Shown here in pieces: positions 31 through 45,122 of a stretch of DNA of 64,000 nt (position 1 is the first letter of the stretch; each line of letters starts with the position of its first letter). Source of the stretch: a virus; the IMG/VR virus record IMGVR_UViG_3300024274_000264; one strand, given 5' to 3'. The position numbers and the translations under genes are program-made. Below the pieces are notes generated by a model. The model did not search any database, was not told the origin of the DNA, and saw only the letters and a list, made by a program, of their open reading frames with translations.

Positions 31-489
31 ATGAAATATAATATAAAACTCATTTGTGAAAAACTCAATGTGACGCACCCACAACATGATAAAATAATGG
101 AACGTGTGTCCGAACTGAAAGCAGATGTTGAAAGTTTATTTAAAGATCAGGAATATCTGGATTTCCACTTAAAAAACAGAAACGAAGAAGCGACAGAAAA
201 ATCAGCTTTTATCTTTTTAAGACATTTGCCAAAGTATACACTCTCATTAAGTTTTCAAAACCATGAGTTTTACATTGCTGAATATGGAGAATATTTGTCT
301 GAAACAAAGATTGAAATAATGATAGCTAATGTTTTTAACATTAAGGAATATATCTTTAAAAAAATTCCAAATTATTTGAAATATAGAACTGGTGCATTTT
401 CTCTTGACCTTATAGATTATGAATTTCCGATAACAGCTTTGCCAAAAATTCATATCAAAATAAATGAACAATGGAATGGCCTCTGGTAA
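31..489 (+). CDS. Hypothetical protein immediately upstream of the first DnaE split-intein C-half
   Basis: 152-aa ORF; ATGA overlap with an upstream frame ending DPLTRELKLL*; weak similarity to ORF 1865..2320. Confidence 0.7.
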   Translation: MKYNIKLICEKLNVTHPQHDKIMERVSELKADVESLFKDQEYLDFHLKNRNEEATEKSAFIFLRHLPKYTLSLSFQNHEFYIAEYGEYLSETKIEIMIANVFNIKEYIFKKIPNYLKYRTGAFSLDLIDYEFPITALPKIHIKINEQWNGLW

Positions 490-494
490 ACATA

Positions 495-599
495 ATGAAA
501 CTAAAATCAAAAACATATAGAAAATATACTGGAAAGGTTTATGACCTTTCTGTTGAGAATAAAAGTTCGTATAACGTCGAGGGTTTTCCTGTGCATAAT
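495..599 (+). mobile_element. Split intein C-half IntC1 (35 aa); partner N-half outside window
   Basis: MKLKSKTYRKYTGKVYDLSV..FPVHN followed by S+1; block F (VYDL) and block G (HN). Confidence 0.92.
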
Positions 600-1874
600 T
601 CTGGTGCGGGATCTTTAGTTTGTTACCTTTTAGGAATTACCCAGGTTGATCCAATTAAACATGGACTTTTGTTTGAAAGGTTTTTAAGTAAAAAGAAAGC
701 ATGTCTCGGAGAAGATTCTTGGGTCTTGACCTATACGGGTCCTAAACAATTAAAAAATATTAAAATCGGAGACCGAATTAAAACTCATACAGGAAAATAT
801 TTTCCTACCGTGGCAATTGATCTAACAAAAGATCGTACAGACTGGTATGAAATTACGTATGGTTATTGGCTAAATCATACCAGTCTTGGTTTGAAAGGTT
901 TTCATAGACCATTTTATAGCGTTGGAAAATTGATAGCTAGTTCAAATCATAAATTTATTACAGCTCAACAATTTAATTGTCCACATATACAAAAAATTCC
1001 TTTAGATGTAAAATATAAAGATGTATCTGTTGAATTTATAAAATCAGTAGTAGATAATAGTTTTACAAAAACTCAGCCAAGATTTTATGGGAATGGATCT
1101 GATAATAAAACTTGGGAAATTTTTTCTATCGAAAAAGGTAAAGTCCCATTAACTTTAATTGATATTAAATTGGAAGCCGACCATACATTTTGGGTTTCAG
1201 ATAAAAAAGATGGCGTGTATGTTTTATCCCACAATTCCTTACCTGACATTGATAGCGATTGTGCAGACAGAGAAGAGGCAATTAAAATTCTTATCGAGCA
1301 TTTTGGAGAAGAATGCGTATTACCTGTTTCAAACTATAACCAACTTCAACTTAAATCCTTAATTAAAGATTTGGCTAGGTTATACCAAATTCCATTTGAA
1401 GAAATCAATCCAATTACTCAAAAAATTGAAAAAGAAACACTTGACGAAGATAAGAAACAAGATGGTTTCGATCGAGGTGTTTGGTTTCTTTCTTATGAAA
1501 GTGCCGAGAAAAACTCTCCAACTTTTAACAAACTATTGGAAGATTATCCACAACTTGAAGCGAGCATAAAAGTATTATTCAAACAAATAAAATCATGTTT
1601 TACGGAGGACACATTACTGTTGACTAACAGCGGTTGGAAAAAATACTCTGAAATTACAGAGCAAGACAAGATAGCATTTATTGACAACGTTGGAGAAATT
1701 CAATATAGTTCAGACTTTTTTAAAGTCGAAAATGGAGAAAAAGAAGTTTACAAAATTGAAACTTTAGATGGAAAGGTTTTGGAACTAACTGAAGACCATT
1801 TAGTTCAAACCGATAAAGGTTGGAAACAGGTAAAAGATTTAACAAATGAGGATTCTCTAATCGGATGGATATAA
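495..1874 (+). CDS. dnaE: DnaE fragment (IntC1 - palm extein with cis mini-intein - IntN2)
   Basis: Exteins SGAGSLVCYLLGIT..LLFERFL and SLPDIDSD (two catalytic Asp); begins with an intein C-half and ends with an intein N-half; ATG 495 preferred over 471. Confidence 0.95.
   Translation: MKLKSKTYRKYTGKVYDLSVENKSSYNVEGFPVHNSGAGSLVCYLLGITQVDPIKHGLLFERFLSKKKACLGEDSWVLTYTGPKQLKNIKIGDRIKTHTGKYFPTVAIDLTKDRTDWYEITYGYWLNHTSLGLKGFHRPFYSVGKLIASSNHKFITAQQFNCPHIQKIPLDVKYKDVSVEFIKSVVDNSFTKTQPRFYGNGSDNKTWEIFSIEKGKVPLTLIDIKLEADHTFWVSDKKDGVYVLSHNSLPDIDSDCADREEAIKILIEHFGEECVLPVSNYNQLQLKSLIKDLARLYQIPFEEINPITQKIEKETLDEDKKQDGFDRGVWFLSYESAEKNSPTFNKLLEDYPQLEASIKVLFKQIKSCFTEDTLLLTNSGWKKYSEITEQDKIAFIDNVGEIQYSSDFFKVENGEKEVYKIETLDGKVLELTEDHLVQTDKGWKQVKDLTNEDSLIGWI
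702..1235 (+). mobile_element. Cis mini-intein (178 aa, no endonuclease) in DnaE
   Basis: CLGEDSWV start, SSNHKF block B, LIDIKL..HTF block F, SHN/S end; removal restores ERFLSKKKA-SLPDID. Confidence 0.92.
1596..1874 (+). mobile_element. Split intein N-half IntN2 (92 aa)
   Basis: CFTEDTLLLT block A, LTEDH block B, GWKQVKDL then stop. Confidence 0.93.
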
Positions 1875-2320
1875 AGCAATTTTTTTCTGAAGACTATGAA
1901 AAAGTAACTTTAGAAAAGTCTCAAGCTGTTTTTGAATTGTTTTATAGTTTGGTTGATCAGTTAAAAACTAGAAAAATTATACATTCGGAAAAATTGATAT
2001 TGCTTGAAGAATTAGATGTATTTGCTATTAGTTGTCAAGATATGTCTATTGAATTTTTACGCAAATGTAAGTTCTTATCCGAAAAAGAGATTCAAGAGAT
2101 GTTTGTTACTATTTATACAATTAGCGATGAAAAAGTTCTTACCCCACACGATACTTGGATTTGGATTAATAATATCCAACTAACAAATAAATTTAAACCA
2201 CAATTTTCTTTAGGTATAAATTATGATGGAATTGAACTCTATTCTTATCTTTTGGAAATAGAAAATCAAAAAATAATAGGTCTCAAGTTGGAGCGAGAAT
2301 TCGGCGATGAAACAGAATAA
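1865..2320 (+). CDS. Hypothetical protein between IntN2 and IntC2
   Basis: 151-aa ORF overlapping both flanking dnaE pieces; no endonuclease motif recognised. Confidence 0.75.
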   Translation: MDIKQFFSEDYEKVTLEKSQAVFELFYSLVDQLKTRKIIHSEKLILLEELDVFAISCQDMSIEFLRKCKFLSEKEIQEMFVTIYTISDEKVLTPHDTWIWINNIQLTNKFKPQFSLGINYDGIELYSYLLEIENQKIIGLKLEREFGDETE

Positions 2321-2441
2321 AATAATCTCAATTCAAAAAATTGGTAAGAAACCTGTCTTTGATATTCACCACAATATTCCAACAGGTGCTTTTATTGACG
2401 ATCAGCCTAATATAGTGACCGAAGCTGGATTAATTTCAAAT
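2307..2441 (+). mobile_element. Split intein C-half IntC2 (45 aa, atypical)
   Basis: KIISIQKIGKKPVFDI..GLISN then C+1; joining gives KQIKS-CGRHAGG, matching the DnaE RxxGxHAGG motif. Confidence 0.88.
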
Positions 2442-3533
2442 TGCGGTCGCCACGCTGGCGGCGTTGTCCTCACTGACTCGCCGATCGAAAACCAGAATAT
2501 GCCTCTGATTATTGGCGGCAAGGGTGAGAAAAGATCGCTCCAAACACCTTGGACAGAAGGTGTAAACTTCAGAATGCTAGAACATTTTGGATTTCTTAAG
2601 TTTGACTTTTTGGCACTTGGAACACTCCGTATTTTTGAAAACACGGTAAGAAAAATATTAAAAAAACAAACAGGAAGACAAGAATCCGAAATACCATTTG
2701 AAGAAGTTCAAAAATGGTTTAATGATCATTTGTCACCAGACAATAATCCAATGGATGATCTTAAAGTTTATGAAAACGTGTTTTGGAATGGAAATTTTAT
2801 TTCGATTTTCCAGTTCGTAAAACCAAACACACAAGATTTTATGAAAAGGATGAAGCCTAGATCGGTCAAAGATATTGCGATTGCGACTTCAATACACCGC
2901 CCAGGCCCACTAGGATTAAAAGTAGATAGAGACTTTTTAGCGAATAGAGCAAACCCAGATTTGATTAAATATGAACATCCATTCTTAAAAGAAGTTTTAG
3001 AACCAACAAGCGGACTCTTAATTTTTCAAGAACAGTTACAGTTAATTTATCATCATTTATGTGGAGTTCCTCTCGACGAAACAGATTCCGTTCGTAAAGC
3101 ATTTACAAAGAAAGAAATCAACAACAAGGAAAAAGCGGCAAAAGAACGTGAGAAGTTAAAAGCTGAGTTTGTAGAAAAAACAAAAACCTTTGCAGGTCTT
3201 GAAGAACAAAAGGCATCAAAGTTTTTTGATAAAATGGAAAAATTGGTTGCGTATTCGTTTAACCAATGTTTGCATGGAGATTCACTTGTAGAAACTCAAA
3301 ACGGATTTAAGAAAATTAAAGAGGTTATACCAAACCAAGATTTAGTCAATAGTGTCAATGGATTTGTAAAAGTAAAAAATAAGTTTGAAAATGGTGTGAA
3401 AAATTTGGTTAAAATTAAAACGAAGTCTGGTAAAGAATTAGTCTGTACGTTAGATCATAAAATTCAAACACCTAATGGCATGAAAACTGTTAAAGAAATA
3501 ATAGAGCAAAAGCTTCAAATTATAGTAAAATAA
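2307..3533 (+). CDS. dnaE: DnaE fragment (IntC2 - palm/fingers extein - IntN3)
   Basis: CGRHAGGVV, FLKFDFLAL (third catalytic Asp), IFQF, HRPGP, LIFQEQL, AYSFNQ. Confidence 0.95.
   Translation: MKQNKIISIQKIGKKPVFDIHHNIPTGAFIDDQPNIVTEAGLISNCGRHAGGVVLTDSPIENQNMPLIIGGKGEKRSLQTPWTEGVNFRMLEHFGFLKFDFLALGTLRIFENTVRKILKKQTGRQESEIPFEEVQKWFNDHLSPDNNPMDDLKVYENVFWNGNFISIFQFVKPNTQDFMKRMKPRSVKDIAIATSIHRPGPLGLKVDRDFLANRANPDLIKYEHPFLKEVLEPTSGLLIFQEQLQLIYHHLCGVPLDETDSVRKAFTKKEINNKEKAAKEREKLKAEFVEKTKTFAGLEEQKASKFFDKMEKLVAYSFNQCLHGDSLVETQNGFKKIKEVIPNQDLVNSVNGFVKVKNKFENGVKNLVKIKTKSGKELVCTLDHKIQTPNGMKTVKEIIEQKLQIIVK
3267..3533 (+). mobile_element. Split intein N-half IntN3 (88 aa)
   Basis: CLHGDSLVET block A, CTLDHKI block B, then stop. 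Confidence 0.93.
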
Positions 3534-3553
3534 TTGTATCTGGTTTTAGTCAA

Positions 3554-3691
3554 ATGCAAAAATGTATGATCTGTAATCAAGAATTTAAGGTTATAAGATG
3601 GAAAATATTACGAATTTGGGAAAGCGAGATTAATTCTGATTTTGATTCGGTTCTCAAAAAAATAGAAGCTTTTGTAAAGGAAAAAAAATAA
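3554..3691 (+). pseudogene. Internally deleted Vsr/DUF559-like endonuclease remnant (45 aa)
   Basis: Own translation MQKCMICNQEFKVIRWKILRIWESEINSDFDSVLKKIEAFVKEKK*: a CxxC start fused to the WxxLRIWE motif; TAATG-coupled to IntC3. Confidence 0.7.
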
Positions 3692-3801
3692 TGCTAGACG
3701 AGATCGATTCTGTTGAGTTTTATGGTATTGAAGAAACTTATGATTTGGAAGTGGATCATGAAGACCATACTTTTTATGCTAATGATATTTCTGTTTCTAA
3801 T
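3691..3801 (+). mobile_element. Split intein C-half IntC3 (37 aa, very acidic)
   Basis: EIDSVEFYGIEETYDLEV..HTFYANDISVSN then S+1; joining restores YSFNQ-SHA (FNKSH motif). Confidence 0.92.
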
Positions 3802-4833
3802 AGCCACGCAATTTCTTATTCAATAGCTACTTTTCAATGCAGCTATCTTTTAACATATCATCCAGATGAATGGATAACAGCTTGTTTAGATTATGCCGCT
3901 CTTGAAAAGGGTAAAGTTGTTGGTCAAGAAGATCCCAAAGCTGTTGCAATGAGAGAGGCACAAAAACTTGGCTATAAATTCTCAAAACCAGATATTAACT
4001 TCTCAAGTGCGGGATATGAAATGCATCCATTTAAAGAAAAAACAATAATTCCAGGATTGACAACAATTGATGGAATTGGAGAAGCAGCGCTCGAAGAAAT
4101 TAACAGAAATAAACCTTATAAAGATATAAAAGACTTATTAATAAAAGAAGATGGTTCTTGGAAACATTCTAAATTTAATCGTAAAGGATTAACAAATCTT
4201 ATTTGCTTAGAGGCCCTCGATAGTTTAAATCTTGTTTCGCCAACTGGTGAATTATCAAATTACAAACAAGCGTTTAATGTTATTGTCGAAAATTTTGATT
4301 TATTAAAGAAAACTTCAGCAAAGAAGAAAAATAATAACATTCAACCAATTTTAGATGAACTAATAAAAAAAGAACAAGAATTAAAAACAGAAGATTGGTC
4401 AAGAGCAGAAAAAACTAAATATTGGCTCGAACTTGCAGGTAGCGCAGACTTAAGTTTAATTCTTGATCCAAAATATTTTGAAGCAATAAAAGAGATGAAT
4501 CTTATAAGCGTTGATGAGATTAGAGAAATCGATTTTCTTGAAGAAGGAGAAAAGAAAAAGATCACAGAACAAGTTTGGTTTATTTTAAGAAAAGCAATAT
4601 TAAAAACAACAAAAACAGGAAAAATTTACGCCGAACTCTCTGTAATTGGAGAAAAGTTTTCAGACTTAACAGTAAAAGTTTGGGACATAAGTCCAACAGA
4701 AAACTTCGAAGCGTACCCAGTGTACGAGGTTTATTGCGGATCAATTACAAAAGACAAATATGGACTATCAACCAAACTAGATAAAATTGCTTCTTTGTCA
4801 GAAATTTATGATTATCTTTTTTCTGGCAATTGA
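3691..4833 (+). CDS. dnaE: DnaE C-terminal fragment (IntC3 - fingers/HhH/OB-fold)
   Basis: SHAISYS, YHPDEW, PDINFS, GLTTIDGIGE (HhH), C-terminal OB-like KTTKTGKIYAEL. Confidence 0.93.
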   Translation: MLDEIDSVEFYGIEETYDLEVDHEDHTFYANDISVSNSHAISYSIATFQCSYLLTYHPDEWITACLDYAALEKGKVVGQEDPKAVAMREAQKLGYKFSKPDINFSSAGYEMHPFKEKTIIPGLTTIDGIGEAALEEINRNKPYKDIKDLLIKEDGSWKHSKFNRKGLTNLICLEALDSLNLVSPTGELSNYKQAFNVIVENFDLLKKTSAKKKNNNIQPILDELIKKEQELKTEDWSRAEKTKYWLELAGSADLSLILDPKYFEAIKEMNLISVDEIREIDFLEEGEKKKITEQVWFILRKAILKTTKTGKIYAELSVIGEKFSDLTVKVWDISPTENFEAYPVYEVYCGSITKDKYGLSTKLDKIASLSEIYDYLFSGN

Positions 4834-21268: not shown

Positions 21269-23563
21269 ATGAACGAAGAGCAAAAACAAAAAACCGCATT
21301 AATAACTGGTGTTACTGGGCAGGATGGTTCTTATCTGGCTGAGTTTCTTTTAGAAAAAGGGTATAGAGTGATTGGAATGAAAAGAAGAACAAGTATCATT
21401 TCTACTTCTAGGATAGACCACATTTATTCAAATCCAAATTTTATTCTAGAGTATGGAAACATGAGCGACGCATCTTGTTTTTGGAATCTATTGTCAAAAT
21501 ATAAACCTGATGAGATTTATAATCTTGCAGCTCAATCTCATGTTAAAACATCTTTTGATGTTTCAGAAGAAACTCTTGATATAGATGGCGCAGGAGTTTT
21601 AAAACTACTTAATGCGAGTAAAGCAATTATTCCAAATGCTAGAATTTACCAAGCGAGTTCTTCCGTTACAGGGGAGACACCAGTTCTTATCAGAAAAAAT
21701 AAAAATGAAATAAAATTAGAAAAAATAGAAAATTTAGTTAACCCAAAATTAGAAAAAACGGAATATTCAAATCTTGAATGTTTAACTATTGATAGAAAAA
21801 CATTAAAATTAAAATGGTCTCCAATCGCTTATGCTTTTACTCATAAGTCATCAAATGTTTATAACATAAAAGGGACTGGTGGATTTAATATTGGAATAAC
21901 AGGCAATCACTCTGCTATGATTATTGATAAAAATGGAGAATTAGTTGAAAAGAAAATTGATGATATAAAAATAGGAGATTATCTACTTTCTTACATGTCT
22001 TTCAATAATAATTTTGAGGAAAAGGAAAGAGTTTATCCTATTTTTGATTTGAGAAAATTTGCGAATTCAAAAAAATATATAACAAGATCCAATAGTCAAA
22101 TTGATTCATTAGTTATTAATGATGATATTTGTAGATTAATTGGATTTTATTTGGCAGAAGGAAATGTTTTTATAAAAGAAAAGAAAACATACAAAACAAC
22201 TTTTACTTTTCACATAAAAGAAAAATATTACACGGACGATATTAAAAATATTGTAAAAAACAACTTTGGAATTGATTGCTGTGAATCAGAATTCGTTTCA
22301 AGAAATACTCGGAAAATTCAATTTTCAAGCAAGCAATTTGCTAAATTTTTATTAGAACAATTTAAAACAGGATCAAAAAAGAAAGAAATTCCAAGTTGGA
22401 TATACAATTTGCCGAAATCTGCATTTGTTAATTTAATGCAAGGATATGTTGGAGATGCCAAAATTTCAAAAAATGAAATTAGATATACTTCAGTAAATAA
22501 ATCAATGTTACAAGCTTTACTTTATATTTCAAAATTAAATGGAATGTCTCCAACTTTTTTAGATAGAAAAACAGGTGCATTTGATCTGTTATTTTCTTCA
22601 AAAGATAAAAAAGAAATATTAGGTACAACTGAAATAGATTTAAAGTTTAAACAAGCCAATGGAACATTAATTGAATCAAATGTTTTCAACAATTTAGCAC
22701 CAACGTATATAAGAAAACTTAACGGGTATAAAAAAAATATTTCAAAAGAAAAAATATTAAATACTTTAGAAAAATTAAAAACGAAAACTGAGTTGTCGGA
22801 AAATTTAATAAAATTAGAGAGATTATCCAACTCAGACATTCATATTGTGAAAATTAAAAAAATTGAAAAACTTAAAGAGGAAAATATTAATGTTTACGAT
22901 CTTCATGTGCCTGAAAGTCAAATTTTTATTGGCGGAAATTATCCGTTAATTTTACACAATAGCGAAATTTTCGGGACAAACCCAGAAGTTCCTCAAAATG
23001 AAGAAACTAAATTTATGCCTGCGTCACCTTACGCTTGTGCAAAAGTGTTTGCCCATAATATATGCATAAACTATAGAGAAGCATACAAGATGTTCATTTG
23101 TCCAGGAATTTTACAAAATCATGAAAGCCCAAGAAGAGGGGAAACGTTCGTAACAAGAAAGATTACTTTAGCTGCTGCAAAAATAAAACTTGGAATGCAA
23201 TCCAAATTAGAACTTGGAAACTTAGACGCAAAACGGGATTGGGGCTATGCAAAAGAATATGTTGAGGCTATGTGGTTGATGCTACAACAACCTAAACCAG
23301 ATGTTTTTGTTATTGCAACAGGAGAAAATCATTCTGTTAAAGAATTTGCAGAAACGGTTTTCGAGTATGCTGGTTTAGATCTTAAAGATCATCTTGTGAT
23401 CAATCCACGACTTTTTAGACCACACGAAGTGCCATGTCTAAAAGGTGATTATTCAAAAGCGAAGAGAATTCTTGGATGGGAACCAAAAGTTAAATTTAAA
23501 GAGCTCGCGCAAATTATGTATAATTCAGATTTAGATCTTCTAAAAAAAGGAATAATCAAATGA
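21269..23563 (+). CDS. gmd: GDP-mannose 4,6-dehydratase with LAGLIDADG intein
   Basis: [27 protein letters not shown]|[39 protein letters not shown]. Confidence 0.95.
21662..22960 (+). mobile_element. Ser1 intein (433 aa) with LAGLIDADG endonuclease in gmd
   Basis: [10 protein letters not shown] start, ITGNHS block [20 protein letters not shown] end. Confidence 0.92.
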
Positions 23564-42455: not shown

Positions 42456-45122
42456 ATGAAAAAAGAGAAATATAAAATCTTATTATTGTCTGATGATTTA
42501 AGATGTGTTTCTGGTGTTGGCGGTCAATCGAGAATGCTTGTCGAAGCATTAGTTTCAAGCGGAAAATTTTCCGTAAAGCAATTGGGTGGCGCAATGAAAC
42601 ATCCAAATTACGACATTCAGATGCTTCATCCAGATATTGTTGTTAAACCTGTAGATGGATTTGGAACCCCAAATCTTTTAAGACAACTTTTAATAACTGA
42701 AAAGCCAGATGTCCTTTTATTATTCACAGATCCAAGACAGTTTGTTTGGGTTTGGCAAATGGAAGATGAAATTAACCAAATATGTCCAATTGTGTATTGG
42801 CACGTTTGGGATAACGATCCATATCCAGAATACAATTCAGCATTTTATGAGAGTACAGATGTAATAAATTGTATTTCCATGAAAACATATGATTTGTTAA
42901 AAGATAGATATCCAAATAAAGTAAACTATCTCCCACATACCTTTCCAAAAAATTGGTATTATGAATTATCAAAAGAAGAAGTCGAAAAGCTAAAAGCAGA
43001 AACTTTAAAAGATAGAAAAGATTGGTTTTTTACATTATGGGTCAATCGTAATGCTCACCGAAAAATGCCAGCAGATGTTATGCAAGGATTCAAACTTTTT
43101 CTTGATATGCTTCAAGAAAAAGAAGGACATAAAAATGCTTTGCTCGTAATGCACACAAATCCAAAAGATCCAGAAGGGCCAGATCTTGAAGCAGTAGCAG
43201 AAATGCTTAAAATTTCTGACAGGGTAATGTTTTCTGTTGGGCAAATAGATATTCCAGATATGAATCGACTTTACAATGTTGCCGACACCATTGTTAATGT
43301 TTCGAGGGCCGAGGGTTTTGGCCTTTGCTTGGATTTTTCCACGAAATTATCAACCAAAGAAGGTATAAAAAATATTTCTGATATTGAAACAGGAGATTTT
43401 GTTTTATCTTTGGATGGTACTTATAATAAAGTTTTAGCCAAATCAAAAAGAAAAGAAAATAATGTTGTAAAAATAAAAGCATCAAGAATAAAAGAAATTA
43501 CATCTTCTAAAGAACATCCATTTTTAGTTTGTAAAGATCCAGAAACATCTCCTGATGAATTGAAATGGGTTCAAGCTTCTGAAGTTAAAATTGGTGATTT
43601 TCTCTGTATCCCAAAAAATAAAGAAATTTTTAACGGAGAATACAAAACAATGTTTAAAATAACAGATTTCCTTTTAGCGGAAGATGTTTCTAAGCTTGAA
43701 TTCGAAGATAAATTTGTTTATTTTCCAATGGGTTTTTCCAGCATTGCCAATGGTATTTCAATAAAAGAAATAGGAAATTTATTAGGTTTAAAAAAACATC
43801 ATTCTGAAATTTTACGAAAATATATTGGCAATATTCCACAACGAAGAGGCGTAAAAATAAAAGAAAGATTAGAAAAACAAAAACAGGAATTAATAAAACT
43901 AATACCAGATCTTAAAATCAACAAAAAATTAATAAAAGTTAATAACGAATTGAAAATAAATGAAGAATTTATGAAAATTTACGGCTGGTACCTTGCAGAA
44001 GGTTCTGTTGGAAAAAACTTAAAATCTTCATTAGAAATTTCTTTTCATATTGACGAATTGGAAGTAGCAAATTGGTTTAAAACTTATTTTAAAGAAAATT
44101 TCAATGTTGATGGGAAAATAGAAATACATAAAACTCAAAACAAATGTAGATTTGTTTGTTCTTCTTCTATCTTGGCTAAATTTTTTGGAACTATTTCTGG
44201 CTATGGAGCGAAACAAAAATCGATACATAAACAATTTTTGCCATTGTTGAAAAATAAAGAATTTGCAAGTGCCTTAATAAAAGGATTATTCTTGGGGGAT
44301 GGACATTTTTCAAAAAATAAAAAAGTAGCATCTTACAATACAATAAGCCCAATTTTAATAAATCAAGTTATTGAAACACTCCATATGTATAATATTTGTC
44401 CAAATTTATATATCAAAAAAGCAAATGAGCAATTTAATCAAAAAGAATCTTATCAACTTGGTTTCACTGGTAAAGAATATGAAAAACTTTGCGCATTTAT
44501 AAACAAAAAACCAAACACTTCTAAAAGTGAAGGAAAAAATCACACTTTATATTTTACAGAAAATAAAATTTTTGTTCCTGTTACATCTAGCAAAACTGTA
44601 ACTTTGGATTCTGAAATTGATTTATTTGATATCCAAGTCGAAAATACTCATAACTTTGTCGCCAATAGAATTATTGTACACAATTCTACATTACAAGCAT
44701 TAACACTGGGCAAACCAGTTGTTGCGTTAAAGACTGGTGGCATGACCGAACAAATGACCGATAAAAACGGCAATGTTCACGGTGTTGCTCTAGAACCAGT
44801 AGAAAGATATCTTGTTGGATCACAAGCAACGCCATATATTTATGATGATCATTTTTCAAAAAAAGAATTAGCAGAAGGACTTTATAAGGTTTATAAACTT
44901 ACACCAGAAGAAAAAGAAAAAATTAATAGAGAAGCAAAAGCTCACGTTGAAGAACAGTTTAATTATGAAACTGTTACAGGCAAATGGATTCAAATTCTTG
45001 AACAAACAATCCAAAATTGGAGAGAAGATAAAAAAGAAAAAAATTGGGGATTAATACAATTTAATACTCCCAAAAAAACTATGAACGAAGTCCAAATAAA
45101 CAAACCAAAGGTGAAAAAATGA
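42456..45122 (+). CDS. GT4 glycosyltransferase with LAGLIDADG intein
   Basis: SGVG, VNRNAHRK, EGFGL|STLQA, GKPVV..TGG. Confidence 0.92.
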   Translation: MKKEKYKILLLSDDLRCVSGVGGQSRMLVEALVSSGKFSVKQLGGAMKHPNYDIQMLHPDIVVKPVDGFGTPNLLRQLLITEKPDVLLLFTDPRQFVWVWQMEDEINQICPIVYWHVWDNDPYPEYNSAFYESTDVINCISMKTYDLLKDRYPNKVNYLPHTFPKNWYYELSKEEVEKLKAETLKDRKDWFFTLWVNRNAHRKMPADVMQGFKLFLDMLQEKEGHKNALLVMHTNPKDPEGPDLEAVAEMLKISDRVMFSVGQIDIPDMNRLYNVADTIVNVSRAEGFGLCLDFSTKLSTKEGIKNISDIETGDFVLSLDGTYNKVLAKSKRKENNVVKIKASRIKEITSSKEHPFLVCKDPETSPDELKWVQASEVKIGDFLCIPKNKEIFNGEYKTMFKITDFLLAEDVSKLEFEDKFVYFPMGFSSIANGISIKEIGNLLGLKKHHSEILRKYIGNIPQRRGVKIKERLEKQKQELIKLIPDLKINKKLIKVNNELKINEEFMKIYGWYLAEGSVGKNLKSSLEISFHIDELEVANWFKTYFKENFNVDGKIEIHKTQNKCRFVCSSSILAKFFGTISGYGAKQKSIHKQFLPLLKNKEFASALIKGLFLGDGHFSKNKKVASYNTISPILINQVIETLHMYNICPNLYIKKANEQFNQKESYQLGFTGKEYEKLCAFINKKPNTSKSEGKNHTLYFTENKIFVPVTSSKTVTLDSEIDLFDIQVENTHNFVANRIIVHNSTLQALTLGKPVVALKTGGMTEQMTDKNGNVHGVALEPVERYLVGSQATPYIYDDHFSKKELAEGLYKVYKLTPEEKEKINREAKAHVEEQFNYETVTGKWIQILEQTIQNWREDKKEKNWGLIQFNTPKKTMNEVQINKPKVKK
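43326..44684 (+). mobile_element. Intein (453 aa) with LAGLIDADG endonuclease in GT4
   Basis: CLDFST start, SKEHPF block B, YGWYLAEG and IKGLFLGDG, LFDIQV..HNF, VHN/S. Confidence 0.95.

Follow-up and report, generated by a model that had tools for sequence, protein, structure and literature searches.

The breaking of phage replication genes by split inteins was described by Dassa et al. (2009; PMC2677866), in whose fractured genes the two intein halves flank a Vsr-like endonuclease gene of the same strand; DnaE was among the host proteins, and the loci concerned came from short reads, with one fracture each. The DnaE of cyanobacteria is also split, once only, by inteins (Npu, Ssp) with an acidic N-terminal half (IntN) and a basic C-terminal half (IntC) which are encoded far apart. 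In both Npu DnaE and gp41-1, the N-half segment before block B and the first strand of the C half form a charge zipper between the halves (bioRxiv 10.1101/546465). The two inteins have opposite polarities, the N half of gp41-1 being positive and its C half negative (PMC2677866; bioRxiv 10.1101/546465), and both polarities were therefore already known in nature. The strand charges have also been reversed by engineering in order to suppress cross-reaction (charge-swapped Npu DnaE and charge-introduced Npu DnaB). Swapping these charges alone did not make Npu DnaE orthogonal, while split Npu DnaB was orthogonal (bioRxiv 10.1101/546465).

The stretch of DNA analyzed here (the window, 64,000 nucleotides [nt]) corresponds to positions 165141-229140, on the minus strand, of a virus record of 390,884 bp (IMG/VR IMGVR_UViG_3300024274_000264) with direct terminal repeats and a G+C content of ~33%. 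At its left end a bacterial-type replicative polymerase, DnaE (polymerase III alpha), was found to be encoded as separate pieces, four in all, with three split inteins at sites S1, S2 and S3 and one mini-intein, predicted to splice in cis, at site S1b (Table 1). Judged from its sequence, this appears to be a natural polymerase in four pieces, whose three split inteins do not all have the same polarity, and it can be classed as a variant of the fractured-gene arrangement; no account of a natural four-piece protein was found in a literature search. Unlike the loci of Dassa et al. (2009), it has three split inteins and one cis intein in one gene, and an endonuclease trace is seen only in the gap of pair 3 (a remnant of 45 amino acids [aa]), the gap of pair 2 containing a 151-aa Open Reading Frame (ORF) and that of pair 1 ~15 kb with ~30 genes. 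Pairs 1 and 2 share the acidic-N/basic-C pattern of the cyanobacterial inteins, and pair 1 also their distant halves, whereas IntN3 gave no match to them at E below 1. In contrast to the engineered inteins, which are variants of one intein, the three pairs here are natural and unrelated, and the occurrence of both polarities together in one protein is new. The explanation held to be most probable, with moderate confidence, is that the four pieces are trans-spliced into DnaE, that the polarity of pair 3 is inherited and its arrival recent, and that partner choice depends mainly on divergence, with a charge veto as a by-product.

When the inteins are removed, the exteins concatenate to 1292 aa, of which residues 1-1282 align with uninterrupted phage DnaE genes. 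Because this collinear concatenate matches intact genes end to end, the four pieces make one complete DnaE, in which S1 lies after residue 520, S1b after 554, S2 after 674 and S3 after 949. The middle pieces, 2 and 3, have the IntC-extein-IntN layout given in a preliminary description of this DNA. All three pairs retain Cys1, the TxxH block, the terminal Asn and a Ser or Cys at +1, with junctions HN|S for pair 1, SN|C for pair 2 and SN|S for pair 3. Membership of the HINT fold is supported by sequence alone for pairs 1 and 2 (Pfam Intein_splicing/Hint; PDB intein matches), the best solved relative of IntN2 being the Spl DnaX mini-intein (E 8e-7). Relatives begin the C half of pair 1 at a Met equivalent to that of IntC1. 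The penultimate His is kept in pair 1 (HN); pair 3 keeps the block F His (DHTF) but ends in SN, and pair 2 has neither. Loss of the penultimate His is tolerated among known inteins. IntC2, in which the two positions read ISN and QPNI, is also ~10 residues longer than IntC1 (35 aa). For comparison, ~170 phage DnaE loci (L numbers below) were collected and their intein halves were called by profiles and extein alignments. Among these, the S2 C half measures 44–47 aa in all alleles (L010–L012, L038, L091–L094, L112, and L114), 8–10 residues more than IntC1 and IntC3, and its form (no block F His, no penultimate His, ISN end) is conserved across distant phages, e.g., L038, L112, and L114. On account of this conservation the atypical half is presumably functional, with an unusual catalysis of Asn cyclization.

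It is highly improbable that the pieces are not covalently joined, whether as a decaying gene or as a protein assembled non-covalently through intein-derived association domains. Such a possibility is raised by the absence of both conserved His residues from IntC2, by a fragmented phage ribonucleotide reductase (NrdA) which is reported to be assembled by interaction domains (PMC3045599), and by relative L110 (6268-7534), in which DnaE is broken at S1b and the ends of the fragments have no intein nucleophile or terminal HN; this break may represent a non-splicing association module or a decayed intein. However, in the window phage all six halves keep their nucleophiles and terminal Asn, the exteins are 60–89% identical to those of relatives with no damage to the frames, and the S2 allele with the same atypical IntC has been kept in distant phages. 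In addition, the genome yielded no other DnaE locus, every Pfam PF07733 match falling in the known pieces.

The charges of the halves (Table 1) were compared with those of stretches of the same length from this phage's own ORFs. IntC3 lies in the 0.1% tail, followed by IntN2 (3%), IntN3 (5%), IntN1 (7%), and IntC1 (9%), while the charge of IntC2 is ordinary (39%). The hand counts of the preliminary description for IntN2, IntC2, IntN3, IntC3, and IntC1 were all exact when the halves were translated, and the acidic-N/basic-C polarity which it reported for pair 2, with the reverse for pair 3, is real. It extends to the strands which would pair the halves, taken as those of the known charge zippers, where the N and C halves carry local charges of -8 and +6 (pair 1), -3 and +4 (pair 2) and +3 and -6 (pair 3) (the first strand of IntC2 has +4 over the 16 residues preceding block F); total and pairing-strand charges agree in sign for all three pairs. 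Base composition was rejected as the source of the Lys-rich IntN3, as L025 and L085 share the G+C content (~0.29) and extein Lys content (~11%) of the window, yet have an IntN3 charge of -10. Apart from charge the pairs are well diverged, with IntN halves 20–37% and IntC halves 22–23% identical among themselves.

Among solved inteins, gp41-1 is the one closest to IntN3 in sequence (E 5.5e-6). In L093 (2753-3175) the pair 3 intein occurs naturally in a cis form, the fold of which was predicted with a predicted local distance difference test score of 90.8, the sole disordered stretch being residues 92–101, exactly where the window version is split. In a Foldseek search with this predicted fold gp41-1 (6qaz) ranked first (E 8.6e-11), and all top PDB matches were inteins. 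Pair 3 shares with gp41-1 a Lys-rich N-half strand facing an acidic first C-half strand, and is of similar size (88 + 37 aa). It differs in its host and site (DnaE, between FNx and SH, compared with the gp41 helicase), in its identity of only ~30% and in an IntC ending in SN, not HN. By sequence, predicted fold and charge-zipper polarity, pair 3 can be described as gp41-1-like.

The polarity of site-3 inteins was expressed as an index, the N charge minus the C charge. A tree of 41 of these inteins resolved two clades, with a support of 99 each. All nine members of clade A, which holds pair 3 of the window, are reversed (index +8 to +23), whatever their context: L109 and L111 are cis-splicing inteins in DnaE genes without any other intein, and L110 has no other recognizable intein, though its gene is also broken at S1b. 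Since the reversal is common to all nine, that of pair 3 is inherited from its intein lineage, and its evolution in place in this genome is ruled out. Clade B has 32 members, mostly with an index of -14 to +3 and a few of them reversed. By sequence it resembles the cyanobacterial DnaE inteins, which are the best solved relatives of L085 (7802-8113) and L012 (7820-8119), with E ~5e-9. The insertion point of clade B at phage site 3 appears to be a few residues off the cyanobacterial one, which suggests related inteins at neighboring sites. L115, which is outside the tree, has its nearest neighbors in L130 and L143, both reversed members of clade B; the L115 DnaE has a single split, at site 3, and the index there is +18. 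The idea that polarity is fixed by the insertion site was rejected for site 3, where both polarities occur, and holds at S0, S1, and S2.

The preliminary description had proposed that opposite polarity in adjacent pairs may enforce the order of assembly, by disfavoring the self-cyclization of piece 3 (IntC2 with IntN3) and its skipping (IntN2 with IntC3). The products of the charges are indeed repulsive for both (+7 and +120, respectively), as they are for IntN1 with IntC3 (+96) and IntN3 with IntC1 (+28). Four of the six wrong pairings are hence opposed by charge, each involving a half of pair 3. The other two are favored, namely IntN2 with IntC1 (-40), which would cyclize piece 2, and IntN1 with IntC2 (-8), which would skip it, and because these attract, charge is not sufficient to set the order. 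The intramolecular pairing of IntN2 with IntC1 attracts more strongly than the cognate IntN2 with IntC2 (-10), in agreement with the earlier remark that it needs another discriminator. The longer IntC2 had been put forward for this on grounds of shape, which foresaw a part of the answer; the remaining discrimination must come from IntC2, with its length and its lack of both histidines, together with the divergence of the pairs in general.

Opposite polarity is not necessary either, because inteins of the same polarity have been assembled in one pot without cross-reaction, gp41-1 with gp41-8 and NrdJ-1 with IMPDH-1 (PMC7090010; polarities PMC2677866). Orthogonality is the default, as 15 out of 16 split inteins of unrelated origin did not cross-react with each other, same-polarity sets used in one pot among them (PMC7090010). 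A general alternation rule was rejected for multiply split phage DnaE: of 32 distinct adjacent pairs, 13 have same-chain halves that repel and 15 have halves that attract, 4 being neutral; among the skipping pairs 10 are repulsive, 10 attractive and 3 neutral. The proposal that polarity enforces order is borne out by the repulsion of the four wrong pairings, but is not supported as a rule or as an adaptation. The reversed charge plausibly vetoes these four pairings; it is inherited, and neither sufficient nor generally required. It may help in partner choice but cannot alone set the assembly order.

In the favored explanation, the four polypeptides would be joined by protein trans-splicing, with the three mutually diverged split inteins acting at S1, S2, and S3 while the fourth intein splices in cis. 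The complementary charges of each pair would speed the association of its halves. Pairs 1 and 2, acidic in N and basic in C, would be old and fixed in this phage clade, and pair 3, basic in N and acidic in C, would belong to a gp41-1-like lineage that is reversed wherever found and would have entered S3 recently, accompanied by a Vsr-like homing endonuclease gene that subsequently decayed in this genome. The choice of partner would depend mainly on overall divergence in sequence and shape, the repulsion added by pair 3 to four wrong pairings with its halves being a by-product.

The history of site 3 can be followed within the clade of the window phage, which also comprises L007–L012 and L090–L095 (76–89% extein identity). 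Every member covered has split inteins at S1 and S2, with the N half always acidic and the C half always basic, and in the next relatives, at 60% identity, the gene is intact. No intein occupies S3 in L007/L010, L091, and L094; the site is split around a full 290-aa endonuclease gene in L092, is occupied by a contiguous 141-aa mini-intein in L093, and has a different allele with a 331-aa endonuclease gene in L008/L012. The fractured-gene arrangement as defined, in which the halves flank a free-standing endonuclease gene of the same strand, is thus found at site 3 in L008/L012 and L092. Since the site is empty, split with an endonuclease gene or contiguous among close relatives, pair 3 is a recent, mobile arrival. 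It has lost its endonuclease here, as the gap holds only the 45-aa ORF, the last 30 residues of which align with the C-termini of ORFs of 290–361 aa that occupy this position in L092, L110, and L114. L091, L092, L093, and L094, which are metagenome contigs, are near-identical to one another and have ~76% extein identity to the window; at this one site they form a natural snapshot of the gain and the loss or re-fusion of a split intein.

It is also possible, though rather doubtful, that charge polarity was selected for orthogonality, such that beside acidic-N/basic-C inteins only reversed ones establish or persist, or the residents drift, and mixed polarity orders the pieces. This is where the effect of context is to be considered, context being defined as a split intein of normal, acidic-N/basic-C polarity (S1, S2, S2y, or S2z) in the same gene as the site-3 intein. 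The median index of site-3 inteins is ~+8 with such a neighbor (n = 14) and ~-7 without one (n = 22; Mann-Whitney p = 0.002), and the shift toward reversal is seen within both clades. Generalized least squares on the intein tree, which was itself derived from the charge-bearing residues, gave +7.5 ± 2.3 charge units more reversed (p = 0.003), with no effect of G+C content as a covariate. A test of phylogenetically independent pairs had 3–8 usable pairs and could not reach significance, none of the pairs going in the opposite direction; the multiply split contexts come from only ~4 phage lineages. In favor of selection, too, base composition does not explain the shift, and IntC3 has no Lys or Arg in a Lys-rich proteome. 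Against selection, reversal occurs without other inteins too, both in the cis-splicing L109 and L111 and in the split L115, and same-polarity neighbors are common (S1/S2 of the window, S0/S1b of L038, S2y/S2z of L116). Repulsion does not exceed attraction over the 32 adjacent pairs, and the most dangerous intramolecular pairing of this system, IntC1 with IntN2, is attractive. Polarity as an adaptation, as put forward in the preliminary description, is therefore not borne out by pairs 1 and 2, fixed clade-wide with the same polarity, or by L109 and L111; the context signal in its favor is a hint, and is best regarded as a lead.

Inheritance with a by-product veto remains the preferred reading, and some observations weigh against it. 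The context shift suggests that the charges at site 3 are not purely inherited, and L012, a member of the window's phage clade, has a clade-B intein with charges of +9/-8, although clade B is mostly N-acidic. The anatomy of the gene, the charges, the pattern across lineages and the polymorphism at the site have been shown here; this reading also depends on splicing, orthogonality and a contribution of charge to specificity which are inferred. Tentatively, co-resident split inteins might shape each other's electrostatics, either by filtering invaders or through drift after arrival; charge would then be one layer of orthogonality, and the phage would carry a ready-made, naturally co-evolved orthogonal set of three pairs.

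Split inteins are standard tools for joining proteins, and multi-piece assembly needs sets which do not cross-react, all of which have so far been laboratory selections or designs. Natural cases are provided by this phage and its relatives, where one essential protein would depend on the joint action of three or four split inteins; they hence offer what would be a nature-tested orthogonal set, including an unusual pair without both conserved histidines. The series of states among relatives (empty, split with endonuclease, contiguous) could show how split inteins originate, are lost and respond in charge to their neighbors. If charge is only a by-product, designers should not rely on polarity alone.

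Table 1. DnaE pieces, exteins, intein halves and gap ORFs (window positions unless a locus is given).
Feature	Location	Strand	Description
Piece 1	L006:15132-16982	-	616 aa; PHP domain, start of polymerase core, IntN1; outside the window, ~15 kb upstream
IntN1	End of piece 1, L006:15132-16982	-	96 aa; 21 D/E, 13 K/R, net -8; starts CFLPG; block B TKDH
152-aa ORF	31-489	+	Last gene of the ~15-kb gap 1, directly upstream of IntC1; no Pfam family at cut-off
Piece 2	495-1874	+	IntC1, extein, 178-aa contiguous mini-intein, extein, IntN2
IntC1	495-599	+	35 aa; 3 D/E, 7 K/R, net +4; ends HN, then Ser +1
Extein 2a	600-701	+	Pol III alpha NTPase domain (Pfam PF07733; tblastn against intein-free reference)
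Mini-intein, site S1b	702-1235	+	178 aa, contiguous, predicted cis-splicing, net +5
Extein 2b	1236-1595	+	tblastn against intein-free reference
IntN2	1596-1871 (stop to 1874)	+	92 aa; 20 D/E, 10 K, net -10; starts CFTED; block B TEDH
151-aa ORF	1865-2320	+	In gap 2, overlapping both flanking genes; no recognizable nuclease domain (Pfam)
Piece 3	2307-3533	+	IntC2, extein, IntN3
IntC2	2307-2441	+	45 aa; 4 D/E, 5 K, net +1; ends ISN, then Cys +1
Extein 3	2442-3266	+	End of NTPase domain and finger domain (Pfam PF17657, E 2.9e-30; alignment)
IntN3	3267-3530 (stop to 3533)	+	88 aa; 9 D/E, 16 K, net +7; starts CLHGD; block B TLDH
45-aa ORF	3554-3691	+	Remnant of Vsr-like homing endonuclease gene; stop overlaps start of piece 4; weak DUF559 and MTES_1575 matches
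Piece 4	3691-4833	+	IntC3, extein
IntC3	3691-3801	+	37 aa; 12 D/E, no K/R, net -12; ends VSN, then Ser +1
Extein 4	3802-4833	+	Helix-hairpin-helix and C-terminal region (Pfam PF14579; tblastn against intein-free reference)

The ~15-kb gap between IntN1 and IntC1 (L006:1-15131; genome ~229100-244230) contains ~30 unrelated genes. From their translations alone, the products were named as a thymidylate synthase-like protein, a dihydrofolate reductase-like protein and a 574-aa subtilisin-like protease, and an array of ~120-aa paralogs was also seen. In relatives, too, piece 1 lies 6–12 kb upstream of piece 2. The two ORFs of ~150 aa each at 31-489 and 1865-2320 precede IntC1 and IntC2, where fractured genes usually hold the endonuclease gene; homology between the two was unsupported (BLASTP E 0.16, not significant).

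Other sites in the gene vary among relatives as well. S1b is occupied in L010 and L011 by a split intein with a homing endonuclease gene. At a further site, S1c, L012 (5260-5800) and also L090 have an atypical split between blocks F and G, which in L012 consists of a 152-aa N part, a gap of ~27 nt and an 18-aa C part ending in SHN. The layout in L153 is similar, its N part measuring 188 aa, and L010 and L011 have a contiguous intein at S1c.

Profiles made from the DnaE halves found no further split inteins elsewhere in the genome, though very different types could escape them; matches at the end or start of an ORF were limited to the three DnaE pairs. Seven other ORFs match the N-half profile internally, just two of which also match the C-half profile, and by position they look like contiguous inteins. 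These internal matches include window positions 21269-23563 and 42456-45122, and genome positions ~350839-351717, 387118-387489, and 253241-253591, and the genome appears to be intein-rich.

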